A stretch of DNA of 20,000 nt from an uncultured virus (IMG/VR IMGVR_UViG_3300015245_000036) (IMGVR_UViG_3300015245_000036), one strand, 5' to 3'. Positions 3,515 through 20,000 are shown, numbered from the stretch's first letter. Notes: generated by a model not told the origin, from the letters alone. Translations and numbers: made by a program.

Positions 3515-4325
3515 CGAAGGTCTCCTGGAACGGTCCGCAGCTGCCCTGGTACGAGCACCACTCGCAGGGCCACCGGAGCTTGGGCTTCGCGGGGAACGGC
3601 TCGACGAGCGTCTCGGCGATCTCGTTGATGCGCGAGAACAGCCACGGCGCGTACACCTCGCGTACGCGCGTCGCGTCGTCGAAGTTGGGCATCCACTGGA
3701 TCGCCTTGGCCTCATCACCCTGCAGGAAGTGGATCGCGCCCCGCACCCCGTTCACGCCCGGCGTGTTCGGGATCGCAAGGATGTAGTACGACCACAGCTG
3801 CATCTGCTTCTTCTTGTCCTTCGCGAGGTCCTTGGCCACGCCGGACTTGTGGTCGATGACAACGAGGTCATCGTGCCGCGTGATGACGCCGAGGTCGACC
3901 TTGCCGCGGAAGAACACGTTCTTGTCAAAGAACCCAGCCGGCTTGAACTCCGCGGTGATCCCCCACGCCTCCTCCACTAGGAGACGCTTCACGCCCTCGC
4001 GCCTGCAGAACCCGTCGAACTTTCGCATGAACGAGTCCATGCGCTCCTCGAGCGTGCGGAGCGTGTCCTGCTCGTCCGAGGTCAACGGCGTGTTCTCCAG
4101 CGCGACCTTCTTGGCGTCAGATGCGTTAGCGCCCTTGACCCGGTGCTCCAAGATGCCGTGGGCAGCGGTGCCGACCACGGTCTCCGGCGCAGACGGCCCC
4201 GCGGCGGTCCGCAGTACGTGCTTGTGCTTGAACTGCGCAGGGCAGGACTCGCCTGTTTCCATCTTCGAGAACGACCACGCGGCGTGCTTCAACGCCGCCG
4301 GGGTCACGGTCAATGCGTGGGCCAC
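3498..4325 (-). CDS. PD-(D/E)XK nuclease, RecB/AddB/Cas4-like, with 4-Cys (putative Fe-S) staple
   Basis: WSFSKM...CPAQF, VGTAAHGILE, GKVDLG...VVIDHKSG, QLWSY and C-terminal CEWCSYQGSC. GAGGT precedes the GTG start. Confidence 0.85.
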   Translation of the reverse strand: MAHALTVTPAALKHAAWSFSKMETGESCPAQFKHKHVLRTAAGPSAPETVVGTAAHGILEHRVKGANASDAKKVALENTPLTSDEQDTLRTLEERMDSFMRKFDGFCRREGVKRLLVEEAWGITAEFKPAGFFDKNVFFRGKVDLGVITRHDDLVVIDHKSGVAKDLAKDKKKQMQLWSYYILAIPNTPGVNGVRGAIHFLQGDEAKAIQWMPNFDDATRVREVYAPWLFSRINEIAETLVEPFPAKPKLRWPCEWCSYQGSCGPFQETFGGQTS

Positions 4326-4387
4326 GGCCGCACCTCGTTGCTAGGGGATCTGGGTCATCAGAGGCCGCCGAGGGCGCGGCCGACGCG

Positions 4388-5479
4388 TCACATCGGCTTG
4401 GCAGAGGACCGAACCGAACCCGCGCCCGCCGGCGGCGGCGTCGCCCCCTCGCCCAGATCGTACGACTCCGTCTCCCCCGCGAGGCCTGCGTCCAACTTGC
4501 TGCCCTCGAACGACGCCTCCGCCGCGGCCGCCACGGCAGGTGCCGAGGCCATCGCGACGTAGTGACCAGCGAGCGCGCGATCGCGCTCCGCGCGGTACAG
4601 GTTGCAGAGTGCCTGGGCGATCCTGCTGACGTGCTCGTTGTTGGCCTTGCCCGTCGGCTCGACCTTCATGGTGAAGTACGCGCCCTGCGTGCCCGTACCC
4701 TTCTCGGTCGAAAGCAGAAAGCTGTTGTCCCACATCCGGTTGCTCGCGCCCGCGAGCGACTGGAGGGCGCTTCCGGCCTTCCTCGAGGTCTTGGCGAATT
4801 GGATCATGTAGACCTTGCTCATGTCCGCGGTCGCCACGATCGCCACCACCTGGTTCTGGCAATCGGTGACCTTCTGCTCATCACCGGGCTGCATGCCGTA
4901 GGGCAGATGCGGGCACTCCAGGCACTTGCCGAACGGGTTGCCGAGGTGCGCGTCGGGGGCGACGCACGCGGGAACCTTCGCGCCCTGTGGGAAATTTACA
5001 TTCTCGTAGAAGATGCTGAAGACGAGAAACGGGAACGGCTTCTCGAGAATCTTGCCCTCGCTCGTGTACAGTTCGCCGAGCTTGGCGGCCTCCGGCCGAG
5101 CGGCCGCGGTCGTGGTGGGCTGGTTAATCGTGATGCGCGGGACCTTCCACCCGGTCACGACTTCCTCCATGCCCGGCTTCTCCGTCGAGGCCTGACTCAC
5201 GAGGCCTTCGACGATCTTCTGGTATTCCGTGGGCAGCTTCGGATCAGTGGACAAGGTCACCAGCTCCTCCATCGCTGCGCCCACCGCGTTGTCCAGCTCG
5301 ACAGGGTCCTTGTTCATCAGCTCGAGTCCGCGAGCCGGCTTAGCGGGGCGCCGGGCCCGCACCATCTTCGCCGGCTTGATCGGAGCCGCCATGGCGGTTT
5401 CGGTGGTCTCGACCGGCTTCTCGGCGGTCTTGGTCTCAGGCTTCGTCTCGACCTTGTCGTTCTTGTTCTTTACGCTCAT
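4388..5479 (-). CDS. Putative phage ssDNA-binding/recombination protein with Cys cluster
   Basis: 363 aa, AAGGA RBS. VPRITINQP...CVAPD..G...CLECP...CQN...QFAKTS resembles phage SSB-like proteins found next to nuclease/primase genes. Termini are low complexity. Function inferred from pattern and context. Confidence 0.55.
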   Translation of the reverse strand: MSVKNKNDKVETKPETKTAEKPVETTETAMAAPIKPAKMVRARRPAKPARGLELMNKDPVELDNAVGAAMEELVTLSTDPKLPTEYQKIVEGLVSQASTEKPGMEEVVTGWKVPRITINQPTTTAAARPEAAKLGELYTSEGKILEKPFPFLVFSIFYENVNFPQGAKVPACVAPDAHLGNPFGKCLECPHLPYGMQPGDEQKVTDCQNQVVAIVATADMSKVYMIQFAKTSRKAGSALQSLAGASNRMWDNSFLLSTEKGTGTQGAYFTMKVEPTGKANNEHVSRIAQALCNLYRAERDRALAGHYVAMASAPAVAAAAEASFEGSKLDAGLAGETESYDLGEGATPPPAGAGSVRSSAKPM

Positions 5480-5546
5480 GATTCGTGTCCTTTATTCCCG
5501 TTGTTGTAACCATCTCAATCGATGGTTTCGACTGATTCGGTCTCGC

Positions 5547-5704: not shown

Positions 5705-6583
5705 ATGGATCAGTCTTTTCGTCCTAGGACAAGCGACCGTCCGCGTGTGGCCCGCCACCTGGCGGACGAAGAGGACAGCCGCCGCTCGTACTACGCGAGC
5801 ATAGGAAACACCCGGCCGGTGACGGACCCCCACGAGGAGCGCGTCCTGATCCGGCTGTGGCAGCGGCACAGGGACGTGCGGGCGCGGGACATCGTGGTCC
5901 AGAGCCACCTCCGTTTCGTGGTCCGCCAAGCGCATCGCAAGACCAACGACCGAAACGCCCTCCAGGACTACATCGCCGCCGGCAACCTCGGCCTGCTGCG
6001 CGCGATCGAGCCGGGGCACTTCAATCCCGAGAGGACGCCGTACATTAGGTTCCTCACTTACGCGGGGACTTGGGTCTACAAGGAGATGATGGACCAGGAC
6101 TACGCGTCCAGCTCGACGGTCCACATCCCTACACACAAGCAGAAGGAGCAGCGCAAGCAGGCACACGCGCAGCGAATGGCGGCAGCCCAGCACGGTCCCC
6201 GCTCGGAGGCGGCGTCCGCCGTCGAGTGCGTCACCTACCCCGTCGTCCGAATCGAAGACGTGTGTGACGAGGAGCTTTGCGCAGGCGTCGAAATTGCGAG
6301 CGAATACCACGCGAAACAGCTCTCCGATCTGCTCGAGGCAGCGTTGTCCAAACTACCCACGCGCGAGGCGACCATCATCCGCCTTCACTTCGGTGTCCGG
6401 AACGAGCCTCGCAGCCTCGAACAGATCGGAAAGATCATGTCAATGACCCCGGAGCGTGTCCGGCAAATCAAGGTCATCGCGCTCCGTCTCGTTCGACGCG
6501 ACCTCGAGTCCGACGTGCTCCGCCGCGACCTCGAGGCGGACGCCGCGCTCTTCGGCCTAGTCAGCTCGGCCGAGTCCGCATAA
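5705..6583 (+). CDS. Sigma70-family RNA polymerase sigma factor (regions 1.2, 2, 4)
   Basis: Region 1.2-like YYASIG...EERVL; region 2 SHLRFVV...DYIAAGNLGLLRAIE..F.PER...RFLTYAGTWV; region 4 HTH LPTREATIIRLHFG...SLEQIGKIMSMTPERVRQI. Confidence 0.92.
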   Translation: MDQSFRPRTSDRPRVARHLADEEDSRRSYYASIGNTRPVTDPHEERVLIRLWQRHRDVRARDIVVQSHLRFVVRQAHRKTNDRNALQDYIAAGNLGLLRAIEPGHFNPERTPYIRFLTYAGTWVYKEMMDQDYASSSTVHIPTHKQKEQRKQAHAQRMAAAQHGPRSEAASAVECVTYPVVRIEDVCDEELCAGVEIASEYHAKQLSDLLEAALSKLPTREATIIRLHFGVRNEPRSLEQIGKIMSMTPERVRQIKVIALRLVRRDLESDVLRRDLEADAALFGLVSSAESA

Positions 6584-7067
6584 ATTCCCTAGCCGCGGCC
6601 GCGATCGCCGCGTCGCACATCGCCTGGACCCGCTCCAGGATCTCTGGCCCCTCGGGCTCGTAGCGGCGGAACGGCGTGAGCTGCCCCGCCTGGTTGAGAA
6701 CCAGCGTGCTGACACTGGAGTCCATCAAGTCGATCCGCACCGCGGCCGCGACGTTGCCCGCGTCGTTTCGCGCGAGCACGCGAACCACGCCGAAGTCGAT
6801 CCCGCTGAACACCCACTCGCCCGGGCTGTTCTGCTGGATCGTGGCGAACAAGTTGAGCGGATCGATGGGCGCCTGCGCGATCAACGACATCAGCACATCG
6901 CCATTGAGCAGTCCGATCCGGTCCAGCTTCGCGAGTCGCTCCAGAAGCGTGGGCGGCGCGTGATCGCGGAGCTGAATGACGACCTCGCGCGCCACGGGGT
7001 CCAACGAGGCGTCCCTGCGAGGATCCGCACCCTCGCGCAGGGACATCACGTACTCGGCGAGCTTCAC
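6561..7067 (-). CDS. Hypothetical protein (168 aa)
   Basis: GTGA overlap with the ParB stop, protein-like composition, ends convergently overlapping the sigma gene by 23 nt. Confidence 0.7.
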   Translation of the reverse strand: MKLAEYVMSLREGADPRRDASLDPVAREVVIQLRDHAPPTLLERLAKLDRIGLLNGDVLMSLIAQAPIDPLNLFATIQQNSPGEWVFSGIDFGVVRVLARNDAGNVAAAVRIDLMDSSVSTLVLNQAGQLTPFRRYEPEGPEILERVQAMCDAAIAAAAREFMRTRPS

Positions 7068-8011
7068 AGGGTGTCACGCAGGCCGAGCACGTATTCGATG
7101 GCCTGAAGCTGATACTTGGTCTTGTCCGTCGCGTGACGCTGCTCGCGATTGACGAGCGTGCCGAGCGCCTCCAGTAGGGCCGGGCGCGGCCGTAGCGTGA
7201 TCTTCTTGTCCACGTAAGTCTCCTTGGCAAGGATGATCTTGTCCTGGTCGAACGTGTTCGCCTTGCGCCCAGTCTTCTTCTTCGGCGATGGGATCTTGGC
7301 AATGTCCTCCTTGACGTCCTCTACCGTCGGATACTTGCCCGAGGCGGCCTGCTTGCGTAGGGATTGGACCAGGCCCGGCTGCTTGTCCTTGGGCAGATCC
7401 GTGATCTCCCGGACCATCGTCGCGGAAATGATGCCGTCGTCGTATGCCTGCTTCACCTCATCGCTGGAGTTGCGGAGCATGGACAAGCGCTGGGACACCC
7501 AGGGCTCGGACTTTCCGAGCCGGCGGGCGACCTCGGTCTGCGTCGTCTTATGCTTCTCCATGTACGCCTTGATCGCGGCGCCCTCCTGGTAAGGATCGAG
7601 ATTGAGGCGCTGGAGGTTCTCCACTAGGTTTCGGACATCCTGGTCCTCCTCATCGCCCTTCACGTAGCGAACCGGGATCTGGTTCCAGGACGACGCCTTC
7701 GTCTTCTGCCCCGGAACCTTGTTCTCGCGAAGCAGCCCGATCGCGCCGTACCTGCGGTATCCACAGTCGAGCACGACCTTGCGCTTGCCGGTGGTTCGAG
7801 CAGGCCCACCCTCCCGAACGGCTAGGGGCGAGATCAACCCCTCCCGATCGATGCTGAGCGTGAATTCGAGATCCACCGAGTTCTCGAGGTCGAGCTTCAT
7901 CCGTCCCGTCTTCTGATCGCTGATGTTGTCGCCGATTTCGATGTCGGCGAACGCCACGAATGGCGGCTTGAACTTCACCGCCTGCGTATCTTCCTCGGTT
8001 GCGTTGCTCAT
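7064..8011 (-). CDS. ParB/Spo0J-like protein (ParB N-terminal domain + HTH)
   Basis: SIDREGLISPLAV, CGYRRYGA (GxRR), ENLQRLNLDPYQEG, HTH TQTEVARRLGKSEPWVSQRLSML. Confidence 0.88.
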   Translation of the reverse strand: MSNATEEDTQAVKFKPPFVAFADIEIGDNISDQKTGRMKLDLENSVDLEFTLSIDREGLISPLAVREGGPARTTGKRKVVLDCGYRRYGAIGLLRENKVPGQKTKASSWNQIPVRYVKGDEEDQDVRNLVENLQRLNLDPYQEGAAIKAYMEKHKTTQTEVARRLGKSEPWVSQRLSMLRNSSDEVKQAYDDGIISATMVREITDLPKDKQPGLVQSLRKQAASGKYPTVEDVKEDIAKIPSPKKKTGRKANTFDQDKIILAKETYVDKKITLRPRPALLEALGTLVNREQRHATDKTKYQLQAIEYVLGLRDTL

Positions 8012-9105: not shown

Positions 9106-10026
9106 TCAGCCGGCGCCCCTGCAGTGTCCCCACACGGGACACCACTTCTCGGAGCACCACCAGTTGTCTGGATCAGTGGGGGGAAAGTGACCTAGCGCGA
9201 TGGAGCGTGCGGCGCCCTCGAGGACCCTCAGCGCGTGCTTGGCCTGCCGCGGCGTGATGACACCCGTAATCTTCTCGTAGCGGGGTCTCGGGACCTTGGC
9301 GCGCCCCTTCACCAAGTTATCGATCTGAATGTCGGGAATGCCCTCGACGTGCGCGTACGTGGCGAACTGGAGACTGTTCTCGATGTCAGCCTCGTTCTTC
9401 TTGTCGGCGCTGACTTTCAGGTCGTGAATGCGGAGGGGCTTGCGCGACGGCCGACCCGCGGCGATGTCCTCTCGGATCTGCTGGTACTCGGCGTCGGTGT
9501 GCGCCTGGACCTGCGTGCTGTCGATGCGACCGAGGATGGGAAGGCGAACCTTGCCGTCCTCGGACTTGATCACCACGTGGAACGTAGTCTCGACCGAGAC
9601 CGGCGTGGAAGTCGGTCCCGCGTTCTGGTGAAAGATCTTGGCGCACTCAATGCCAACGTCCTTGACGGTGCCAGGCTGCGAGTCCTCCCAATCGTCGATC
9701 AGATTCTTGTTGGCTTCGAAGGCGTCGGAGAAGGAGTCGGTCGCAAGCGCCAGCGGCGGAAGCTTGCCGGTCGCCAGGATCTCCTTGAGCACAACTTCCA
9801 CCGCGGCGTGCACGAAGACGCCCTGCAGCATCCGCGCGGACGCGCGCCGAGCCTTCTGCTCAACGTACAGGAGCGCCCATTGGCGCGGACACTTGATAAA
9901 TGTCGCGGCCTGCGACACCGACAAATACCCACGCGGCAGGAGATCGGACATCTCCGGCTCGACGTCGGACGGCATGCTGATCGCCGGGTCAATGAGGTCC
10001 TCGACGTCCTCCATCCCGGTCGCCAT
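9106..10026 (-). CDS. Second PD-(D/E)XK nuclease, RecB/Cas4-like, 4-Cys
   Basis: YLSVSQ...KCPRQW, GVFVHAAVE, GRIDS...IHDLKVS, QFATY and C-terminal WCSEKWCPVWGHC. Confidence 0.85.
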   Translation of the reverse strand: MATGMEDVEDLIDPAISMPSDVEPEMSDLLPRGYLSVSQAATFIKCPRQWALLYVEQKARRASARMLQGVFVHAAVEVVLKEILATGKLPPLALATDSFSDAFEANKNLIDDWEDSQPGTVKDVGIECAKIFHQNAGPTSTPVSVETTFHVVIKSEDGKVRLPILGRIDSTQVQAHTDAEYQQIREDIAAGRPSRKPLRIHDLKVSADKKNEADIENSLQFATYAHVEGIPDIQIDNLVKGRAKVPRPRYEKITGVITPRQAKHALRVLEGAARSIALGHFPPTDPDNWWCSEKWCPVWGHCRGAG

Positions 10027-10478
10027 CAGCGCCCCCTTGGGGTAGTGCTGGGATATTCGGTCGACTCGTCGTCGGACAGACGCCGTTTGACGCGGTCGGG
10101 CGAGAACGGACCTACACCACCCGCGCGTGCGATCTTGGTGCTGGCGGCCGTGATGTCTTCCACGGTGCCCGGCGGCTCCCCGATGTCACCGATCGCCAAC
10201 GTGGGCCTGTTGCGGGGGGATGGCGCTTCGTCAAGCAGGTCCGCAGGCGCCGACAAGGCGTCGTCGTTCAGCTCCGGTTCGCGGTGACGAGACCGCATGG
10301 GGACCTCGCTCCAAGACACGTTGGCCTCGATCTCGATCTCCTTGACGCTGATACGCGCCCCGTCAACGCGAACCCAGATCTCGACCGACGCCGAGTCCGG
10401 CTCGAGCCCCTTTTCCTCGAGGTCTCTCGTGATGAGACCCATGATGTCGTCCATCTCGTAGGTGGTCTTGTTCTTCAA
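10026..10478 (-). CDS. Hypothetical protein (150 aa)
   Basis: TTG start after GGAGGA, overlapping the helicase stop; TGATG coupling to the downstream nuclease. Confidence 0.7.
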   Translation of the reverse strand: MKNKTTYEMDDIMGLITRDLEEKGLEPDSASVEIWVRVDGARISVKEIEIEANVSWSEVPMRSRHREPELNDDALSAPADLLDEAPSPRNRPTLAIGDIGEPPGTVEDITAASTKIARAGGVGPFSPDRVKRRLSDDESTEYPSTTPRGR

Positions 10479-12433
10479 GGTTCCTCCATGTCCGGCGCGT
10501 CGGCTCCCTCGAACGAGCGAGCCCGCGTGACCGGCCTGTCAATGGTCCTCTTGTACACGGAGCACCCGGCGTCAAACGGATGAACGCCCGCCGGGATGCA
10601 CGTGGGATTGTGCTCGCATCGCATGCAATCAGTACGTCGCGTGAGCGCATCGTCGACGTCGATCTTGACGTCGAGAAGGCGAGCGATCGCCGGCTCGGGC
10701 GTCCCCTCGCCCTGCATCCTATACACCGTAACCTTCCGTGTCTGCCCGATCCGGTAGTTCCGGTCCTTGGATTGCTCGTAGACGATCAGCGAGAACGGAA
10801 GCGCGTAGTAGATCATGTAGGAGGCCGCGTTGATCGTCACCCCGACGCCCGTCGAGACCTGCGCCAGGTACACGCGCAGTCCGGCGTCCGCGGTGAACTG
10901 ATCGATAAGCCCCTGGGCCTCCCGGCTGTTGGACCCGTCGACCCGGACGTGACCCCACCCTCGCCGATCGAGCATGGCGGACACGATGTTCAACTCGTTC
11001 TCGAACGTGCACCAGATGATCGTCTTGTTGACGGGGTCGGCCAGGATCATCTCGAGCAGCCCCTCGGTCGCGTCGAGCTTGGGATTCTCATCGAACGTCG
11101 TGAGCACGTCGGGGAGCTTCGTCGAGTCCACCAGGCAGCGAGGGGTGTGTGGGCGGATCCGGGCCTCGACGCAGGCCTCGAGATGCCGGCAGCCATGGGG
11201 CTCTGCCTGGTCGCAGAACGCGTCGTCGATCGGATTGGTGATGAGGAACCCCGACGCGATCTGCAGCAGCTTGATCAACATCGCCGCGCGATGAGGCATG
11301 CGGGACGCTGGCGGGAGCGACGCCTGTCGTCCGAACATGAGGATGGCGAGGATGTTAGGATCGACCTCCATCTGCTCGACAAGCTGGTTGTGCACCACCT
11401 TCTGCGTCCTGGACAACACGTAGGGAACGTCCACGATGACCTGCTCCGGAAGGTCGAGGCACTCCTCCTTCGTCTTGTGCAGCGACAGGAACGTCACCCG
11501 CCCGTTGAGCACGTCGAGATTCTTAAACCCGGTCACCACGTGGGACCGCGGGCTCGGCGTCACCAGGAACTTGCGCTTGAACTGCGAGTAGTCCTCCGGC
11601 ATGAAGCAGTCGCCGAGGACCTTGTACTGGCCGTAGGTGTCGCGCGGATCTCCCTGCGTCGGGGACCCCGTCATCAGGATTCGCCGGGAGGCCTTCTGCG
11701 CAATGTCGTAGGTCGCGACCGTTCGGCCCGACTCCCACGACTTCACAAGGTGAGACTCGTCGCATATGACCGCGGCGTACGGCACCCGGCGTACGAGGTC
11801 GGTGGACATCGCGCGCGCTCCGTCATACGTGAGAAGCACGACGTCCGGGGGGTGTTCCACGATCGTGGACAGGATGTCGACCCGCTCGGCCGGGGAGCCG
11901 TGGAGGATCACCCACCGAAGCTGGCCGCCGGAGTGCCGGTCGATCTCCCGGCCCCAGTTGGTGACGGTGACGAGAGGTCCCAGGACGAGGACCGTGCCGC
12001 GCTGGCCGACGTGACGCATCAGCCGAATCAGGTCGACCGCGATCTTGGACTTCCCAAGCCCCGGGGCGTAGAAGATCGCGGCACGGAGCATCCACCACGC
12101 GTGGCACAACCCCAGAACCTGGTGATCGTAGGGCGGCGTAACGAACTCGAACCCCACGGGAAGCGCCCGATTCGCTACACTCTCCTCGACGTGCTCGAGA
12201 TCCACCACGTGACGCCTGGCGACATCGGAGAACGTGACGTGGAAGTCCTTGGACATCACCTCCAGGTCGGACAACACCTTCTTCGAGGCAGGGTAAAACG
12301 CCGGGTACATCCAGAGCCGACGACCGGAATCGTACACAGCCCCGAACGGGCGTCCCAGCGCCGGATGGCTTCCGGTCGCCATGAACACGGGCGTCCCGTT
12401 GCCCGCGGCGCCGACTCGAATCTCAAGGTTCAC
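10475..12433 (-). CDS. SNF2-family (SF2) helicase/ATPase with two Cys/His-rich modules
   Basis: PYDHQ, APGLGKS (Walker A), ICDESH (DExH), MTGSP, RVDGS, GVGVTINAA, QSKDRNYRIGQ. Start moved from 12475 to GTG 12433, which follows AGGAGG. Confidence 0.9.
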   Translation of the reverse strand: MNLEIRVGAAGNGTPVFMATGSHPALGRPFGAVYDSGRRLWMYPAFYPASKKVLSDLEVMSKDFHVTFSDVARRHVVDLEHVEESVANRALPVGFEFVTPPYDHQVLGLCHAWWMLRAAIFYAPGLGKSKIAVDLIRLMRHVGQRGTVLVLGPLVTVTNWGREIDRHSGGQLRWVILHGSPAERVDILSTIVEHPPDVVLLTYDGARAMSTDLVRRVPYAAVICDESHLVKSWESGRTVATYDIAQKASRRILMTGSPTQGDPRDTYGQYKVLGDCFMPEDYSQFKRKFLVTPSPRSHVVTGFKNLDVLNGRVTFLSLHKTKEECLDLPEQVIVDVPYVLSRTQKVVHNQLVEQMEVDPNILAILMFGRQASLPPASRMPHRAAMLIKLLQIASGFLITNPIDDAFCDQAEPHGCRHLEACVEARIRPHTPRCLVDSTKLPDVLTTFDENPKLDATEGLLEMILADPVNKTIIWCTFENELNIVSAMLDRRGWGHVRVDGSNSREAQGLIDQFTADAGLRVYLAQVSTGVGVTINAASYMIYYALPFSLIVYEQSKDRNYRIGQTRKVTVYRMQGEGTPEPAIARLLDVKIDVDDALTRRTDCMRCEHNPTCIPAGVHPFDAGCSVYKRTIDRPVTRARSFEGADAPDMEEP

Positions 12434-12485
12434 GCGGAAAACCTCCTGCGCACCGTTACACGACGCGCGCAGCAATGTCTACAAA

Positions 12486-12500
12486 GTTTATAGGATAAAC
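12486..12500. repeat. AT-rich perfect inverted repeat GTTTAT-AGG-ATAAAC in the 73-bp divergent gap
   Basis: Read directly; ends 6 nt before the portal ATG and contains TAGGAT. Confidence 0.55.
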
Positions 12501-12506
12501 ATCTCC

Positions 12507-14303
12507 ATGTTGGACAACGATCCTGGTGGCGCAGATCTCTCCTTCCACAACGTGTCGAGCCACGGCTCGCCGTTGTTCGACTTCCTCACCGCGTTCGCGC
12601 CGAGGAAGCTGAAGGACCTCTTCCGGCTGTGCGAGTACCTCTACTTCAACTGCAGCCAGATCTTCGCCGCGCTTCAAAAGTTCTGCACGTACCCGATCAC
12701 GGACATCGTGTACGACACGACCAACGAGGGGCTCAAGTCCAAGTACGAGGACCTGCACAACAAGAAACTCAAGACCAAGCGCTGGCTGATCAAGGCGGCC
12801 ATCGATAAGTTCGTGTACGGCAACGCCTTCTACTCGATGTACTCGCCGTTTGTGCGGTTCCTGCGGTGCCCGGCGTGCAGCCAGCTGTCCAACGCCGGAT
12901 CGGTCAGCTACAAGTTCCGCCTCAAGAAGCTCTCGTTCAGCTACACGTGCGCCTCGTGCCGGGCCAAGGTCGACGTTGGACCCGAGGCGGTCGTCGACAA
13001 GCCCATCACGCGCCCCGACAAGATCGCGATCATCCGATGGGACCCCAAGCTGGTCGACATCGACTACAACCCCATCACCGGGCACAGCGAGTACTTCTGG
13101 ACGATCCCGAAGGAGATGAAGGAGCGCGTCGCCAAGAACAACAAGCACCTCATCGACAGCCTGCCCATGGAGTTCCTCAAGGCCATGAGGGACGACAAGA
13201 TCTTCAAGTTCGCCGAGAACCAGGTCTTCCACATGAAGATGGACGCGCCCGCCGGCATCGAGGCCCAGTGGGGCTTCCCGCCGCTGGCATCCACCATCAA
13301 GCTCTTCTTCTACGCGGCCGTCCTCCGCAAGGCCAACGAGGCGATCGCGCTGGACTACATCGTGCCGCTCCGCATCGTCAGTCCGAAGCAGTCGACCGGG
13401 AACGCGGATCCGCTCCTGTCGATGAACCTGGCGACCTGGACCAACGAAATGAAGCACTCGGTCAAGCGCTGGCGCCGCGACCCGCTGCACATCATGTGGT
13501 CCCCTGTCCCCGCCGAGGTCACGCATCTCGGCGGGCAGGCCCGTGCGCTCATGACGCTCGGCGAAGTCCAAGCGGCGGAGGACAACATCATCGCGGCCAT
13601 GGGCCTGCCGAAAGAGTTCATCTACGGCGGGTTCTCCGCGATGGGCTCGGGGATCCAGCTTCGCGTCCTAGAAAACCAGCTCGTTCACCAGACCGGCGAT
13701 CTCAACGACTTCCTGCAGTGGATCACCGACAACGCCGGCCGCAAGCTCGGCTGGGGACCGATGCCGACGGAGCTTGCGCCGTTCAGGTTCATCGACGATG
13801 TCCAGCAAAAGGCGCTGCTGATGCAGCTCAACATGGCTGATCCCCAGAACGGTCCCTGGATCTCCAAGACCACGATGGGCAAGCCGTTCGACGTCGACCC
13901 GATCGAGGAGCGCAAGAAGCGGAAGCAGGAGATGCTCGACGACGCCCGCATGAACGCAGAGACGCAGGTCGAGCTGCAGAAGCGCCAGACCGAGCTTGGC
14001 GCCCGGGTCCGCGCGCAGGCGCAGCTCGGTCAGCAGGGCGCCGCCTACGACCCCCAGCAGATGATCGACCAGGCCGACAGCGTCGTGGAGCAGCTGATGC
14101 CGCTCGACCAGGGCACGCGCCAGTCGCAGATGCACCAACTCCAGACCACCGACCTGCCGATGTACGCGCTGGTCAAGGAGCGGATGGAGAACGCGGTCCA
14201 CCAGCAGAACAGGGCCGCGATCAGCGTGGCGCGCACCGGGCAGGACCCGACCGCGGGCGGCGCGGACGTGGACGGCGTTGGCGCCTCGGATCAGATAGGA
14301 TAG
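12507..14303 (+). CDS. Putative phage portal protein with CxxC...CxxC insertion and Gln-rich C-terminus
   Basis: Portal-like segments DKFVYGNAFYS, FHMK...WGFPPL, IIAAMGLPKEFIYGG; ~600 aa. Start set at ATG 12507 because the track start at 12381 overlaps the helicase head-to-head. Confidence 0.65.
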   Translation: MLDNDPGGADLSFHNVSSHGSPLFDFLTAFAPRKLKDLFRLCEYLYFNCSQIFAALQKFCTYPITDIVYDTTNEGLKSKYEDLHNKKLKTKRWLIKAAIDKFVYGNAFYSMYSPFVRFLRCPACSQLSNAGSVSYKFRLKKLSFSYTCASCRAKVDVGPEAVVDKPITRPDKIAIIRWDPKLVDIDYNPITGHSEYFWTIPKEMKERVAKNNKHLIDSLPMEFLKAMRDDKIFKFAENQVFHMKMDAPAGIEAQWGFPPLASTIKLFFYAAVLRKANEAIALDYIVPLRIVSPKQSTGNADPLLSMNLATWTNEMKHSVKRWRRDPLHIMWSPVPAEVTHLGGQARALMTLGEVQAAEDNIIAAMGLPKEFIYGGFSAMGSGIQLRVLENQLVHQTGDLNDFLQWITDNAGRKLGWGPMPTELAPFRFIDDVQQKALLMQLNMADPQNGPWISKTTMGKPFDVDPIEERKKRKQEMLDDARMNAETQVELQKRQTELGARVRAQAQLGQQGAAYDPQQMIDQADSVVEQLMPLDQGTRQSQMHQLQTTDLPMYALVKERMENAVHQQNRAAISVARTGQDPTAGGADVDGVGASDQIG

Positions 14304-14307
14304 CGCC

Positions 14308-14679
14308 ATGAACAAGCCAAACGTGGGCGGCTTTCAGGACGTGATTGACCAGGCGAACCAGATGACGCAGGGCCCGATCGCGAGCCCATTCGGCATCCCA
14401 CAGCAGGCGTTGGCGCAGGGACCGCGTCTGCCGATCCGGCAGACGACCCAGGTGTTCAACCTGCCGCGGAACATCGCCGCCTACGACGAGCTGTGCAACG
14501 AGCTGTGGGCCGGACGGGGCAAGATTCGATTCGAGGACAGAACCTTCACCAAGGAAGGCGAGGTCGTGATCATCCTGTCCTACTTCACCGACGCGCCCGC
14601 GCAGCGCCCACAGCCGGCAGTGGTTGGCGGCGCGGGTGGCGGGGAAGAAGCTGCCGTAGTGCCATACAGGATCCCATGA
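14308..14679 (+). CDS. Hypothetical protein (123 aa)
   Basis: 4 nt after the portal stop; its TGA overlaps the RNAP ATG (ATGA). Confidence 0.75.
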   Translation: MNKPNVGGFQDVIDQANQMTQGPIASPFGIPQQALAQGPRLPIRQTTQVFNLPRNIAAYDELCNELWAGRGKIRFEDRTFTKEGEVVIILSYFTDAPAQRPQPAVVGGAGGGEEAAVVPYRIP

Positions 14680-17600
14680 CGGATGCTTCTACCAAAACAC
14701 AGCCGGTTCTAAGGCCCGTCCTCGAAGACAGCACCACGCGCAGGGAGAAGATTCGGCAGGCGGCCATCCAGGGTCTCGGCAAGGCCTTCCCCATGAAGGC
14801 GGGCAAGTGGACGGTCGAGCTTGCCGACGCCCGCATCGAGCCGCGCGAGTTCTCGTCGCGCGAGCAGAAAATGGCCATTCTCGAGGGAAAGACGCTGTCG
14901 GAGCGCGTCCGCGGCGATCTGACCGTCCGCGACGCGCAGGGCGCGGTGGCTAGCCGCGCCCAGGGATTCACGTTGCTCCATCTCCCCTACTTCACGCCGC
15001 GCCACACGTTCATACTCGACGGCACGGAGTACTCCGTGTCCAACCAGCTCCGGACCAAGCCGGGCGTCTACGTTCGTCGGCGAGGCAACGAGGAGCTGGA
15101 GGCGGCGTTCAACCTGTCAAAGGGTGCGAACTTCAAGGTCATGATGGAGCCCGAGAAGGGTCTTCTGTACATGCAGCCGGGGCACACGACCGCCCGCGTC
15201 GCGCTCTATCCCGTCCTTCGAGCGCTCGACGTCCCGCACCACGACATCGTTCGAAGCTGGGGACCGCAGGTCGCGGCCATCAACCGCGACGCTTTTCGAT
15301 CTCCCGACGCCCATGTCGGGCGTCTCTACGAGGCCCTGATCCATCCGGCCAAGCGGAATCACGCCACGCCCGAGGCCCGCGTCGGGGCCATCCGAGAGTA
15401 CCTCGAGGCCACGTCGATGGACCCGGAGGTTAACCGCGTAACGCTCGGAAGCCCGTTCGACAAGGCGTCGGGACAAGCCATGCTCGCCGCGTCGAACAAG
15501 ATCCTCGAGGTTCATCGCAAGTCCGCCGACGTCGACGACCGCGACAGCCTTGCGTTCAAGACGTTCCACTCGGTGGACGACTTCGTCAGGGAGCGCTTGC
15601 AGCTGGACGCGCGCGCCATGCGCAACAAGCTGGGTTGGAAGCTCGACGCCAACCGGGGCTCAATCAAGGAAGCCCTGCCCGCCGCGCCGCTCACGCGAGC
15701 CGTCACGGGATTCCTGACGACCAGCTCGTTGTCCGCGGTCCCGATGCAGATAAACCCGATGGAGCTTGTCGACGAGGCGTCACGCGTCACCTTGCTGGGC
15801 GAGGGCGCGATCGCTTCGGAGCGCGCGATTCCGCTCGAGGCCCGAGACGTCCATTCCACGCACCTCGGCATCATTGATCCCACGCGCGTGCCCGAGTCCT
15901 TCAAGGTCGGCGTCGACCTGCGCGTCGGGATCGGCACGCGGAGAGACGACCATGGCAACCTGTACGCGCCCGTGCGGAACGTCCGGACCGGCAAGGACGA
16001 GTACCTCAAGGCTGCCGACATGGCCAAGGCGGTGGTCGCGTTCCCCGGAGGGGATCTCGGCGCGGGGAAGATCGTCGACGTGATGAAGGACGGATCCGTG
16101 CAGCGCGTGGCGTCGTCGGAGGTGACCTACCAGATACGGCACGCCTCGGACATGTATGGCGCGACGACCAACCTTCTCCCCTTGCTCAACGGCATGCAGG
16201 GCAACCGCGCACTGATGGCGTCGAAGCACCAGGGGCAGGCGCTTCCCTTGCTGCACCGCGAGGCGCCCCTGGTGCAGGTCGAGTCTTGGAATCCGGGCAT
16301 GTCGGTCGAGCGGGAGATGGTGCGGCTGATCGTGCCAACCGCGCCGACAGCCGGCCGCATCGACAAGATCGACGCAGACTACATCCACTTCGTTCCGAGC
16401 GGCGAGAAGCGAGCTGCCGACGGGCCCATCCGCCTGCACTACGATCACGACCTCCCGCTCGCGGCCAAGACCTACCTCGACAACAAGCTGACGGTGAAGG
16501 AGGGAGACCTCGTGCGCGAAGGCCAGCCGCTCGCCGAGTCCAACTTCACCAGGGACGGCGTGCTCGCGCTGGGAACCAATCTGCGCGTGGCGTACATGCC
16601 GTATCGCGGCCTGAACACTAACGACGGGATCGTGGTCAGCCAGGGCGCGGCGGACAAGCTCACGTCCGAGCACATGTTCCATCACGTGCTGAGCAAGGCC
16701 GGCGATGTCGAGACCAACAGGGAGAAGCACCGCGCGTACTTCGGTGGGCGGTACTCGGCTCGGCAGTACGACGCGCTCGACGAGAGCGGCGTCGCCCGGC
16801 CGGGGACCGTCCTGCAGAAGGGCGACCCGATCATCATCGGTGTGAGGCCAGAGACCGCGACGGGCGACGCCGCGCTGCTAGGGAAGCTCTCCAAGTCGCT
16901 CGTTCGCCCCTACGCCGAGGTCGTCGAGACATGGACGCACGACCACCCGGGGATCGTGACCGATGTCTCGAAGACCGGCGAGCGCCACAGCGCGACGGTC
17001 AAGACGCAGGAGACCCTGCAGGTCGGCGACAAGATCTCAAACCGCTACGGCGCCAAGGGGGTGGTCGCCAAGGTCGTGCCCGACGCCCAGATGATCCAGG
17101 ACGAGAAGGGTCGCCCGGTCGACGTCATCCTCACCAGCGCCGGCATCATCACGCGCATCAACCCGGCCCAGCTGGTCGAGGCGTCGCTCGGCAAGGTCGC
17201 CGATCATCGAGGCGAGCCCATCCTCGTCCCGCAGTTCGCCGCGCGGGACGCCGTCGCCTACGCCAAGGACCTGCTCAAGGCCAACGGCCTGTCAGACAAG
17301 GAGACGGTGGTCGACCCGATGACGGGCAAGAGCGTGCCAGGCGTGTTCGTCGGCAAGTCGTACTTCCTCAAGCTGTTCAAGACGACCGACAGCAACTGGG
17401 CGGCGCACGGCGCCGAGCGCTACGACTACAACCAGCAGCCGGCCCGCGGCGGCGATGACGGAGCCAAGGGCATCGGCAAGATGGAGTTCGACGGTCTCGT
17501 CGCGCACAACGCCCGCGCCGTGCTTCGCGAGTCCGCGGCGATCAAGAGCCAGCGCAACGACGAGTTCTGGCGCTCGGTGCAGCTCGGCACCCCCGCACCC

Positions 17601-19052
17601 GCGCCGCGCACGCCGTTCGCGTACGACAAGCTGCACGCGATGCTCTCGGGTGCGGGCGTCAAGATCTCCAAGGCCGGCTCGAGGCAGGCGCTGGGACCGC
17701 TCACCGACGCGGACATCCTGAAAATGTCCTCGGGCGTGCTCCCGGAGCCGAGCAAGATGGTCAGGGCCAAGGACCTGCGTCCCGAGACCGGCGGGATGTT
17801 CGACCCCGCGAGAACCGGCGGAATGGCCGGGACGAAGTGGTCGCACGTCGAGCTGTCCGAGCCGATTGTCAACCCCGTATTCGAGGAGCCCGTGCGCCGG
17901 CTCCTGGGCCTGACGCAAAAGGAGTTCACGGAGAAAACCGGCCACGGTGGCGAGTGGTTCCGCGCGGCGCTGGGTCGAATCGACGTGCCGTCCCGACTCG
18001 AGGAGCTGCGCGATCGATCGAGACGCCTGCGCGGCGCGGCGCTCGACGATGCCGTCAAGCAGGCCAAGTACCTGGCGGCTCTCCAGGCGCACGGGCTGAA
18101 GCCCGCCGACGCCTACGTGATCAGCAAGGTGCCGGTCACGCCGCCGGTCATTCGACCGATCCTTCCCCTCAAGGACGGCAGGCTCCAAGTCGGCGACGCG
18201 AACCTGCTCTACCGCGACGCGTTTCTGGCGAACGACCAGTTGAAGGACTCGGTGGGCGTTCTGCCCGGGCCCGAGCTTCACGCGCCGCGTAGGCACCTGT
18301 ACGACGCGGTCAGCGCGTTGTTCGGCGTCGGCGATCCGGTCAGCCCGGGGGTGCAGCGTCGCGGCGCCAAGGGGTACATCGCGACGATCACGGGAAGCCG
18401 ACCGGGCTCGGGGTTCTTCCAGTCCAAATTGATGAAGCGCCAGCAGGACGTCAGCGGGCGCGCGACCATCGCGCCGGACCCGACGCTGTCCATGGACGAG
18501 ATCGGGGTGCCCACTGACATGCTTTGGGGCATGTATTCCAAGTTCGTAATCGGGCGACTCGTGCGTCGAGGCTATTCGGCTATCGATGCACAGAAGTTAG
18601 TGGAGGACAAGGCGCCGATCGCCAAAGACGAGTTGATCAACGAGACCAGGGAACGCCCGGTCATGGTGAACCGCGCACCCTCGCTGACCCGCCACAACAT
18701 CATCGGCGCCTATCCGAGGATGACTGAAGGCAAAACGATCACGCTCAACCCGTTCGCCGAGCGTGGAACCAACGCGGACTATGACGGCGACGCGATGCAG
18801 ATCCACGCTCCGGTGACGCCTGCGGGCGTGGAGGACGTCAAACGAATGACGCTCTCGCACCAGATCTTCGCGGATCGGAGGCCGGGCATGCTCAACGTCG
18901 CACCCGACATGGAAGCCGTGCTCGGTCTCCACCGAGCAACCCAGCCGGCCTCCGATCGAGCCGCGAAGAGGTTCGCGTCGCTGCAGGATGCCCGTGCGGC
19001 GTACCATCGCGGCGAGGTCGCCCTGAACGACCATATCCACGTCGGCGAGTGA
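14676..19052 (+). CDS. Multisubunit-type DNA-directed RNA polymerase: beta-like subunit fused to N-terminal half of beta' (1458 aa)
   Basis: Collinear beta motifs: FILDGTEYSVSNQLRTKPGVY, RDVHSTHLG, NRALMASKHQGQALPL, ALGTNLRVAYMPY, GDKISNRYGAKGVV, YFLKL, QQPARGG, IGKMEF. Then beta' motifs: HVELSEP, VPVTPPVIRP, DVSGRATI, NRAPSL, NADYDGD (18771-18791), VLGL. Start at ATG 14676 (ATGA coupling) rather than 14493. Confidence 0.95.
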   Translation: MTDASTKTQPVLRPVLEDSTTRREKIRQAAIQGLGKAFPMKAGKWTVELADARIEPREFSSREQKMAILEGKTLSERVRGDLTVRDAQGAVASRAQGFTLLHLPYFTPRHTFILDGTEYSVSNQLRTKPGVYVRRRGNEELEAAFNLSKGANFKVMMEPEKGLLYMQPGHTTARVALYPVLRALDVPHHDIVRSWGPQVAAINRDAFRSPDAHVGRLYEALIHPAKRNHATPEARVGAIREYLEATSMDPEVNRVTLGSPFDKASGQAMLAASNKILEVHRKSADVDDRDSLAFKTFHSVDDFVRERLQLDARAMRNKLGWKLDANRGSIKEALPAAPLTRAVTGFLTTSSLSAVPMQINPMELVDEASRVTLLGEGAIASERAIPLEARDVHSTHLGIIDPTRVPESFKVGVDLRVGIGTRRDDHGNLYAPVRNVRTGKDEYLKAADMAKAVVAFPGGDLGAGKIVDVMKDGSVQRVASSEVTYQIRHASDMYGATTNLLPLLNGMQGNRALMASKHQGQALPLLHREAPLVQVESWNPGMSVEREMVRLIVPTAPTAGRIDKIDADYIHFVPSGEKRAADGPIRLHYDHDLPLAAKTYLDNKLTVKEGDLVREGQPLAESNFTRDGVLALGTNLRVAYMPYRGLNTNDGIVVSQGAADKLTSEHMFHHVLSKAGDVETNREKHRAYFGGRYSARQYDALDESGVARPGTVLQKGDPIIIGVRPETATGDAALLGKLSKSLVRPYAEVVETWTHDHPGIVTDVSKTGERHSATVKTQETLQVGDKISNRYGAKGVVAKVVPDAQMIQDEKGRPVDVILTSAGIITRINPAQLVEASLGKVADHRGEPILVPQFAARDAVAYAKDLLKANGLSDKETVVDPMTGKSVPGVFVGKSYFLKLFKTTDSNWAAHGAERYDYNQQPARGGDDGAKGIGKMEFDGLVAHNARAVLRESAAIKSQRNDEFWRSVQLGTPAPAPRTPFAYDKLHAMLSGAGVKISKAGSRQALGPLTDADILKMSSGVLPEPSKMVRAKDLRPETGGMFDPARTGGMAGTKWSHVELSEPIVNPVFEEPVRRLLGLTQKEFTEKTGHGGEWFRAALGRIDVPSRLEELRDRSRRLRGAALDDAVKQAKYLAALQAHGLKPADAYVISKVPVTPPVIRPILPLKDGRLQVGDANLLYRDAFLANDQLKDSVGVLPGPELHAPRRHLYDAVSALFGVGDPVSPGVQRRGAKGYIATITGSRPGSGFFQSKLMKRQQDVSGRATIAPDPTLSMDEIGVPTDMLWGMYSKFVIGRLVRRGYSAIDAQKLVEDKAPIAKDELINETRERPVMVNRAPSLTRHNIIGAYPRMTEGKTITLNPFAERGTNADYDGDAMQIHAPVTPAGVEDVKRMTLSHQIFADRRPGMLNVAPDMEAVLGLHRATQPASDRAAKRFASLQDARAAYHRGEVALNDHIHVGE

Positions 19053-19072
19053 CGGCCTATACTTAGGGTGCC

Positions 19073-19540
19073 GTGCCCTTTCGATCCGAAGCGCAGCGAA
19101 AGTACCTATGGGCCAACCACCCCGAGGTCGCACGGGAGTTCGCGGACCACACGCCCAAGGGCGAGATGCTCCCGGAGCACGTCAAGCGCGCGAGCGCGTC
19201 GGGCGTGCTTGCCGCGCTGGAGCGCTTCGGCCTCAAGCACGCCGGGGAGGAACTTCGGCTCAAGATTCCGGATCGGACCTTCCACGGATTCGACGCGGCA
19301 GGCAGGACAGTGGCGGCGAAGGGCCACGCCAAGAAGGCGAACACCTACGGCGACCGACGGTCGTCGGAGGACCTGGCGCGCATGCTTCAAGCGCTCGACG
19401 AGCCACCACAGCCGGGCGGGCTCGTGGCGTCCAAGAACCCGCTCGATCGCTCGACCAACTGGGGTCCGCCGAGCAACATGGCCGCCGGTGATGTCGGCGG
19501 CCGATCTGGTGTTGGTCCATCTGCGTTTGGAGGCGTCTGA
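19073..19540 (+). CDS. Hypothetical phage protein with MPFRSEAQRKYLWANHPE-type N-terminus
   Basis: 155 aa. The N-terminal basic motif resembles one I recall from uncharacterised phage proteins (not verified). TGATG coupling to the next gene. Confidence 0.75.
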   Translation: MPFRSEAQRKYLWANHPEVAREFADHTPKGEMLPEHVKRASASGVLAALERFGLKHAGEELRLKIPDRTFHGFDAAGRTVAAKGHAKKANTYGDRRSSEDLARMLQALDEPPQPGGLVASKNPLDRSTNWGPPSNMAAGDVGGRSGVGPSAFGGV

Positions 19541-19953
19541 TGCTGTCGGCTCGCGTCACCTCGTTTGCTCATGCGGGCGTCCAGCGCGCCCTGGCAAGGT
19601 TCAAGATCGCGGACGTCGCGCCAGCAGGGATCCTCGACAAGCTCAAGACGTTCGGGTCGGGCCAGGTCGGGGCCGCGAAGGATTTGTTCCACAACCTGCG
19701 CGGCGGCCTGGGCGGACAGATGAACTCCGCCCTGGTCACGGGGGCCGTGCCGCCGCAGAGCATGGACCTCGCGCGAGCGACTCACCGACAGCAGGCTCTC
19801 GGAAACGTGGGCAAGCTCGCACCGACGCTCGCCGGTGGCGGATTGTACATGTGGCACCGACGCAACCAAGAGCAGGATGAGCAGTCGCGCCGCCGAGCCA
19901 TGATGGCCCAGCAGGGCTATGGCGGGCCCCAGGGCTACCCGCCCTCGATGTGA
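19540..19953 (+). CDS. Hypothetical Gly/Ala-rich protein (137 aa), possibly virion-associated
   Basis: Translationally coupled start; Gly-rich amphipathic stretches with short hydrophobic LAPTLAGGGLYMW. Confidence 0.7.
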   Translation: MLSARVTSFAHAGVQRALARFKIADVAPAGILDKLKTFGSGQVGAAKDLFHNLRGGLGGQMNSALVTGAVPPQSMDLARATHRQQALGNVGKLAPTLAGGGLYMWHRRNQEQDEQSRRRAMMAQQGYGGPQGYPPSM

Positions 19954-19954
19954 C

Positions 19955-20000
19955 ATGCGAACGCTGGGACAACACCTCGTCGACGCCGTGCTGCCCAAGG
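19955..20000 (+). CDS. Start of probable RNA polymerase beta' C-terminal-half subunit (truncated by window)
   Basis: ATG 1 nt after the previous stop. MRTLGQHLVDAVLPK resembles the beta' segment TTVGR-hh-xx-h-LP/VPK that normally follows the point where the fused protein ends. Only 15 codons are visible. Confidence 0.55.
   Translation, partial: MRTLGQHLVDAVLPK

Follow-up and report, generated by a model that had tools for sequence, protein, structure and literature searches.

Cellular RNA polymerases (RNAPs) carry β and β' as two whole subunits that are held together by α. In Helicobacter and Wolbachia, β and β' are naturally fused head to tail in one frame, giving a full-length chain of ~2900 amino acids (aa) in which β' is uncut, with α and ω both present. 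In cyanobacteria and plastids, β' is encoded by two genes, rpoC1 (γ) and rpoC2 (β'), whose boundary falls past the catalytic barrel and ahead of the bridge helix. Here, we analysed a 20,000-nucleotide stretch of DNA from an uncultured virus (IMG/VR IMGVR_UViG_3300015245_000036), hereafter called the window, which encodes on its + strand a β chain fused to the N-terminal part of β' (β'N), followed by two small genes, orfA and orfB, and by the opening of a gene that we read as the C-terminal half of β' (β'C). The window has a G+C content of 65% and is the reverse strand of a viral fragment rated 11% complete in IMG/VR. Unlike the Helicobacter and Wolbachia fusions, the phage chains are compact (~2050 aa when unsplit) and, in the window's clade, are cut again inside β'. 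Very probably, the window holds part of the transcription module of a large tailed phage whose RNAP consists of β-β'N and β'C, the split being a derived one and the enzyme probably sigma-directed and packaged.

Among described phage enzymes, the multisubunit RNAPs of the jumbo phages phiKZ and AR9 are likewise phage-encoded and virion-packaged, with β' in two pieces and without α or ω, as presented in the accessible parts of two reviews (PMC7824862, PMC13282480). They differ in that β is also split, into two or three polypeptides, nothing is fused and no sigma homologue is found (PMC7824862, PMC13282480). Their sequences are moreover far more divergent, whereas the window's family reaches 1e-40 to bacterial β' and has a sigma-70-family gene. 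In the accessible parts of these reviews, the RNAP-encoding jumbo phages are without sigma and the phiKZ/AR9 type alone is described (PMC7824862, PMC13282480).

A second group, the multisubunit RNAP-encoding Caudovirales (mReC), comprises metagenomic tailed phages whose bacterial-like β and β' branch apart from those of cells (Weinheimer & Aylward 2020, PMC7481178). The window's fusion would be retained by the filter given in the accessible text (at least 800 aa plus NADxDGD; PMC7481178), and the mReC family of the terminase large subunit (TerL), Terminase_6N (PF03237), occurs in 5/5 relatives of the window. These relatives are five genome records of 156–188 kb, two with terminal repeats and three at least 94% complete; the complete ones measure 185–188 kb and bear the repeats. 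The mReC capsid family PF07068 matched 0/5 of them but also 0/14 controls, which makes this search uninformative. In contrast to the window's family, which has one β gene, several mReC contigs carry two (PMC7481178). One of three sample numbers occurs in the mReC supplements, where it merely labels a reference of a terminase tree, and the accessible text describes no β-β'N fusion or split: the word 'split' is absent, while 'fused' and 'fusion' each appear a single time, in both cases for crAssphage, the supplementary PDFs having been covered by term search only (PMC7481178). The window's family may fall into mReC.

The same two-chain layout, cut site and phage sigma are found in Salmonella phage Arash (OQ632216.1; gp206, gp216 and sigma gp10). 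Its gp206 has 1525 aa with Rpb2_3, Rpb2_6, Rpb1_1 and Rpb1_2, its gp216 has 606 aa with Rpb1_5, and the end of the former and the start of the latter lie at residues homologous to those flanking the window's cut. Vibrio phages D181, D148 and D69 show the same fused-and-split layout. The Arash and Vibrio phage enzymes are, however, only ~29–35% identical to the window's; the Arash halves stand 4.7 kb and nine genes apart, several of these genes being on the other strand, and three tiny ORFs (open reading frames) separate the halves in D181. The Arash paper names the chains β and β', and in its accessible text 'fusion', 'fused' and 'split' have 0 occurrences (PMC10585845). Our search found no published description of the fused-and-split layout, which is not proof that none exists. 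The enzyme is thus a polymerase variant without a description found in print, with a layout that is shared by a lineage and not unique to the window.

The fusion gene occupies 14676-19052 on the + strand; its protein ends ...RFASLQDARAAYHRGEVALNDHIHVGE at the stop codon TGA 19050-19052, and the translation includes NADYDGD and the terminal residues ...AAYHRGEVALNDHIHVGE. Pfam profiles matched Rpb2_3 (1.9e-5), Rpb2_6 (3.4e-42), Rpb1_1 (6.1e-5, under the curated cut-off) and Rpb1_2 (1.1e-19). By these matches and the translation, β and β'N form one ORF with a whole β, joined to the first ~390 aa of β', a part that comprises the clamp core and the NADYDGD-bearing catalytic double-psi barrel, and the chain aligned over its full length with Arash gp206 (35% identity, 1533 aligned columns). 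The listed GTG start at 14493 is probably too early and the gene most likely starts at ATG 14676, giving 1458 aa, because gp206 aligns from residue 68, because the corresponding ORF of the closest related locus (L002) has 1458 aa from an ATG, and because the stop codon of the preceding ORF (14308-14679) shares bases with this ATG. Purifying selection on the fusion is strong: its last 200 codons show 61 synonymous and 3 non-synonymous codon differences between the window and L002. The 1458-aa chain (14676-19049) contains zero cysteines. As bacterial β'N carries zinc-binding cysteines, those of the bacterial type must therefore be missing.

Downstream of the fusion stop, a 20-nt spacer leads to orfA (155 aa, 19073-19540, + strand, GTG start at 19073), whose stop overlaps the start of orfB (137 aa, 19540-19953, + strand) in the sequence TGATG. 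One base past the orfB stop, an ATG at 19955 opens MRTLGQHLVDAVLPK and the frame reaches the window end after 15 codons (19955-20000, + strand). A preliminary description of the window had reported this arrangement, a fusion end, two coupled small ORFs and a new ORF at 19955, and all three elements are where it placed them. It had also proposed that the last ORF is the missing half of β'. The IMG/VR record of the genome stops at window position 19936, so that window 19937-20000 (64 bases) lies beyond it and the window must come from a longer version of the contig; an exact search of viral and metagenome contigs with the window's last 59 bases gave 0 matches.

For the body of this gene, we used L002, the closest of 26 related viral loci that formed the comparison set for the cut and the gap genes (fusion protein ~96% identical to the window's). 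The L002 gene starts with the identical 15 residues, with 3 synonymous base differences, and continues to 592 aa (L002:15460-17238). Its product matched Pfam Rpb1_5 at 9.4e-17 and 77 β' sequences of the PDB at E<=0.01, the best one, bacterial, at 1.4e-40. The motifs that the preliminary description had suggested looking for, namely an Rpb1 domain, a bridge helix and a trigger loop, were all found in the L002 gene: the alignments to solved β' cover both the bridge helix, with the stretch SGGRGNAAQLMRAVG, and the trigger loop, with AAQALSEPLTQ...KHGG. Moreover, an alignment of 40 β'C sequences shows no variation at C211, C260, C267 and C270, and L002 β'C has exactly 4 cysteines; this cluster in the C-terminal part is presumably a zinc site. 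These similarities support the identification of the ORF at 19955 as the missing C-half of β'.

The two chain ends can be placed on known structures. The last helix of the fusion, AYHRGEVALNDHIH, aligns to AYRSGQASLHARVK of a solved β', while TLGQHLVDAVLPKGW aligns to TLGRVMFNELLPKSY of mycobacterial β' at residue 666, with β'C residue 3 at the TLGR motif. The cut therefore lies in the variable loop between them, in agreement with the earlier proposal of a position between the A-Y-x-x-G segment and the TTxGR-like motif. The window thus shows the pattern of the Arash type of fused-and-split RNAP, in which the first chain stops once the helix A-[YF]-H-x-G...I-x-[VI]-G is complete, the second chain beginning at the T-x-G-Q/R...LP motif. 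Unsplit relatives (e.g., P0032) have ~6 residues between the two parts, and therefore no structural element is lost by the cut.

The split had been described as very close to the cyanobacterial one and independent of it. Rough proximity was borne out, but the two cuts do not fall at the same residue. Solved cyanobacterial γ chains go on for ~65 residues after the phage cut (in 8h3v_E, residue 558 of 625 pairs with query residue 348 of 350), and residue 35 of the cyanobacterial β' 8gzg_Z aligns to β'C residue 44, which places the cyanobacterial cut ~10–45 residues downstream; it falls after the TTxGR...LP motif, the phage cut before it. The two systems also differ in that cyanobacterial β is a separate subunit, whereas phage β is fused to β'N in one ORF, and in that the origin of the phage cut lies within a clade of viruses with unsplit basal members, which supports independence of the two cuts.

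How widespread is this layout? In 25/26 loci, the fusion C-terminus matched to query residue 198–200 of 200 (the contig of L003 ends earlier), and β'C matched from residue 1–3 in 22/26 loci, the other four contigs ending first. The gene order from fusion end through gap genes to β'C start thus recurs in relatives, far beyond chance. A wider, exhaustive HMMER database search with β'C detected 5405 proteins at E<=1e-3, of which 1134 also reached E<=1e-30. The best 150 of the 5405 were classified by phmmer against the three parts, and 5 with a coverage of <470 residues were dropped. Among the remaining 145 representatives, 111 are stand-alone β'C proteins starting at the same site, many with inteins and some with C-terminal extensions; 18 are contiguous β-β'N-β'C chains of ~2000–2560 aa (typically ~2050), 7 are β' without β, 4 have a short extra N-terminal piece and 5 are of unclear class. 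Ten clusters of this sweep were looked up and all were metagenomic. At 12/12 IMG/VR loci of the unsplit type, the chain is one open frame of 2063–2181 aa. Rpb2_6 lies in one ORF in 5/5 related records, which means one RNAP per genome. The layout is therefore not special to this window; it is common to a phage lineage of very large extent, some members of which are in culture.

To place the cut in the history of the family, trees of the β'C region were rooted on 3 bacterial β' chains (FastTree, 164 rows; IQ-TREE quick, LG+G4, 66 rows). In both trees, the viral family formed one clade (support 100), with the unsplit or single-chain forms as basal lineages and the split forms nested within. The split clade, which includes the window's family, Arash and D181, comprised 129 rows (124 split) with a Shimodaira–Hasegawa-like (SH-like) support of 97 in FastTree, and 33 rows (31 split) with an SH-like approximate likelihood ratio test (SH-aLRT) value of 99 in IQ-TREE quick. 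The apparent exceptions in this clade, P0101 and P0105, are proteins split here with N-terminal additions. The analysis thus supports the cut as a derived state of an ancestrally single β-β' chain, because unsplit relatives branch basally and, independently of the tree root, because bacterial β' is continuous at the same site.

In relatives, the gap between the RNAP halves measures ~0.5 to 2.5 kb and holds extra genes. Some encode endonucleases: Endonuclease_7 was detected in the gaps of L011 (2.2e-14; also in L013) and L018 (3.4e-21), and a LAGLIDADG_3 gene in that of L016 (7e-6), with a look-alike in L020-L023. The gap of L018 also has a ferritin-like gene. Vibrio phages D181 and D148 carry an annotated homing endonuclease gene that breaks up the β part of their fusion, so that this part occupies two further genes; in the D181 locus (L035, 1815-7329), small ORFs and the homing endonuclease divide this part, which is in one piece in Vibrio phage D69. 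Another cut, at β'N position ~389 in P0145, coincides with an intein site of four single-chain relatives. Genes in pieces that arise through mobile endonuclease genes are known in phage ribonucleotide reductase. Foreign genes landing in the loop probably made the split in the RNAP as well, mobile endonuclease genes creating genes in pieces where loops are tolerant.

We propose that β-β'N and β'C would assemble non-covalently into a normal catalytic core, as expected from a cut in a short surface loop with nothing lost. The second chain would supply the rest of β', from the TTxGR-like motif through the bridge helix and the trigger loop to the C-terminal clamp parts. The window also encodes a sigma-70-family factor 9 kb upstream (5705-6583, + strand; Sigma70_r4 9.7e-13, Sigma70_r2 8e-6, phrog_351 sigma factor 3.2e-31), which probably sets promoter specificity; a Sigma70_r4 gene exceeded the cut-off in 5/5 related records. 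Pfam profile searches detected α (PF01000) in 0/5 related records and ω (PF01192) over the cut-off in 0/5, the single ω candidate scoring 13 bits (E 0.02), below the cut-off. The β-β' tether may replace the assembly role of α. Terminase_6N was present in 5/5 related records at E<=0.001, with 2 over the curated cut-off. In the accessible part of the Arash virion proteomics, Gp206 has 3516 spectra, the most of any protein, Gp216 has 1210 and sigma Gp10 has 467 (PMC10585845). By analogy with Arash, at ~29–35% identity, virions probably carry the window's enzyme and inject it, so that it can transcribe the early genes.

Several points weigh against this interpretation. In this genome only the first 15 β'C codons are visible, the body having been read in its relative L002. 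The root of the trees consists of three bacterial rows of partial coverage (326–472 aa), and branch support comes from fast methods only. The split rows P0150, P0046 and P0051 fall outside the main split clade, where they join one full fusion (support 85–90, unstarred), so that there may have been one or two origins, or a reversal. The window's own gap holds no endonuclease. The absence of α and ω was established by Pfam profile only, and host subunits could be borrowed. Packaging is carried over from one phage only, ~29–35% identical, and assembly and sigma use are deduced from genes. The insecure root (3 outgroup rows, partial coverage) and the fact that the unsplit forms are several basal lineages, whose order is weakly supported, leave some room for a split that was ancestral in the viral family, the ~2050-aa single chains having arisen later by gap loss and gene fusion. 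We consider this unlikely by a wide measure, given that split forms are nested within unsplit ones in both trees and that, bacterial β' being continuous at the site, a continuous chain is the simpler ancestral state.

Two further explanations would take away the split itself. If a split intein re-joined the halves after translation, mature β' would be intact, and inteins are indeed very common in the family, many β'C representatives having Hint/LAGLIDADG inserts at ~185–200 and ~300–325 and a LAGLIDADG-bearing in-frame insert interrupting β in L011 and L013. However, the fusion end and the β'C start abut residues that are contiguous in unsplit relatives, so that neither an N-intein of ~100 aa nor a C-intein of ~35 aa could be accommodated; Pfam scans found no Hint or intein family on the fusion or on β'C, orfA and orfB are separate genes, and the two chains are annotated as separate for Arash virions in the part of that source available. 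Such re-joining is therefore very improbable. A split due to an artefact or to gene decay, through a frameshift, a mis-assembly or an insertion-interrupted pseudogene, would be compatible with the presence of only 15 codons of the second half in the window and with a source fragment rated 11% complete. But the same cut is seen in independent assemblies (22/26 loci, two cultured phage groups and 111/145 representatives), both halves are under strong purifying selection (61 synonymous versus 3 non-synonymous differences over the final 200 fusion codons), and Arash virions, according to the accessible part of the report, contain both chains as proteins. We regard an artefact or decay as next to impossible and retain the two-chain RNAP with a derived split.

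The two genes in the gap were examined separately. The ORFs 19068-19880 and 19108-19491 are alternative frames in a sequence of 65% G+C, and the conserved frames are orfA and orfB. Between the window and L002, 39/56 nucleotide differences in orfA and 30/52 in orfB fall at third codon positions, and synonymous to non-synonymous codon differences number 35:17 and 27:20, respectively. OrfA has the N-terminal motif PF+SxAQR+YLxA and the C-terminal motif DPLDRxTxWGxPSNLxxGD; tblastn found homologues between the RNAP halves in 20/26 loci, and an alignment of 14 sequences (A1) has a mean column identity of 55%. Its C-terminal module (WGxPSxLxxGD) can be recognised in the distant locus L026, whose gap holds one gene only (hhalign 93.5%, E 2.2e-7); loci of this type with a single gap gene have an RNAP identity of 45–50%. 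We considered whether the single L026 gene is an orfA-orfB fusion and found no support for this, as hhalign gave orfB a probability of 0.1 and only the orfA C-terminal module is shared. OrfB is rich in Gly and Ala, with tblastn homologues between the RNAP halves in 17/26 loci and a mean column identity of 41% in an alignment of 14 sequences (A2). Pfam and PHROG scans assigned orfB to no family; for orfA, the Pfam scan gave no family and PHROG only a weak match to phrog_1375, of unknown function (E 5.5e-4). An AlphaFold2 (AF2) model of orfA on A1 had a mean predicted local distance difference test (pLDDT) score of 54 and a predicted template modelling (pTM) score of 0.21, indicating that it folds poorly alone, and the orfB model in the Atlas is poor (pTM 0.25). 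The Atlas language-model neighbours of both proteins all scored 0.77–0.79, a range that shuffled proteins often reach. In L017 (12252-13599), orfA is itself interrupted: an unrelated gene of 136 aa separates an ORF for its N-part (79 aa) from one for its C-part (124 aa).

On the strength of these alignments, orfA and orfB are real, conserved protein families. The preliminary description had spoken of two unrelated small genes between the halves; two genes are indeed present there, and both are conserved family genes (alignments A1 and A2) rather than random passengers. The fusion, orfA, orfB and β'C follow one another head to tail, with junctions that overlap or measure 1–20 nt. A terminator scan of the + strand at 18800-20000 found no terminator-like site, and a scan of the gap found 0 promoter-like sites and, on the opposite strand, a single terminator-like site, a yield that shuffled sequences match. 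The four genes probably form one operon.

Could orfA and orfB be functional partners of the polymerase, as accessory or assembly subunits that replace α or ω, or as capsid-loading adaptors? Their position in the gap is kept over deep divergence (20/26 and 17/26 loci, and the orfA module at 45–50% RNAP identity), they are translationally coupled to one another and to β'C, and Pfam searches of the related records found no encoded α or ω. In addition, the orfA N-terminal motif MPFKSKSQMRAMFA is fused directly to β'C in P0101 (residues 1–60), one of 162 proteins of which 150 were the sweep representatives, and the nearest language-model neighbours of orfA are prohead-protease/prohead-core clusters at 0.77–0.78, a lead only. 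On the other hand, 0/12 loci with an unsplit polymerase have an orfA or orfB homologue (hidden Markov model E<=1) or either motif within ~6 kb, and neither orfA motif was found in the Arash (L030) and D181 (L035) loci, whose gaps hold other genes. The polymerase also evolves far more slowly than both genes (3 non-synonymous differences in the fusion's last 200 codons, versus 17 in orfA and 20 in orfB), the model of orfA alone is poor (pLDDT 54), and conserved synteny within one phage clade is expected without a functional link. A partnership is thus possible but doubtful. Slightly more tentative is a specific form of it, in which orfA, perhaps with orfB, would bind the polymerase near the cut as an assembly subunit or a procapsid-loading adaptor, the cut having been created, and being kept, because the loop is a landing site for mobile genes such as homing endonucleases. 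If the gap genes were part of the machine in this way, the phage clade would be a natural experiment in re-partitioning a cellular RNAP.

Independently of the role of the gap genes, this phage lineage joins β and β' but cuts β' at another place, and it has retained a sigma factor while no α or ω gene can be recognised. This bears on core assembly and on which surface loops tolerate cuts, the phage cut lying near the cyanobacterial one with a separate origin, as well as on the reshaping of essential genes by mobile endonuclease genes and inteins and on the virion packing of a cell-type holoenzyme. Cultured members (Arash and the Vibrio phages) make these questions testable at the bench. The window alone is one more member of the lineage, and what it adds is the conserved small gene pair in the cut.

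Inteins were very frequent in the β'C proteins of the family. They carry Hom_end_hint, LAGLIDADG_3 and Intein_splicing matches (P0003, P0034, P0060, P0064 and many others), with hot spots at about residues 185–200 and 300–325 (trigger-loop region), and some proteins have two. P0004 contains a GNAT acetyltransferase domain (residues 613–720, 1.5e-9) in a ~500-aa C-terminal extension of β'C, and P0105 has a ~400-aa N-terminal extension (residues 1–400) with a HELRH (HExxH-like) motif fused to β'C. Within the fusion gene, in-frame inserts of ~330–350 aa occur in L011 and L013 (~12334-13388) and in L019 and L020-L023 (~11269-12269, L020 coordinates). The L011 insert sits within Rpb2_6 and is intein-like (LAGLIDADG_3, 2.3e-5), while a Pfam scan of the L020 insert gave no match. 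A GNAT acetyltransferase domain also lies in frame within the β part of the L015 fusion (L015:11612-12340, 5.5e-7). The terminase open frames of two related records are ~900 aa long (G002, C1:69177-69488; G003, C1:81332-81637), compared with 541–551 aa in the other three, and these long frames may carry inteins too.

Elsewhere, Pfam and PHROG scans of the large window ORFs 4313-5509, 9235-10287, 10580-12493, 12381-14303 and 14308-14679, and of the L002 genes 3' of β'C, yielded nothing beyond one weak tape-measure match. Two further genes lie upstream of the RNAP genes on the opposite strand: window 2-3718 (- strand) encodes a primase-like protein of at least 1239 aa, with a CHC2 zinc finger, a Toprim-like domain and a PHROG DNA primase match, and window 7064-8011 (- strand) encodes a ParB-like protein.

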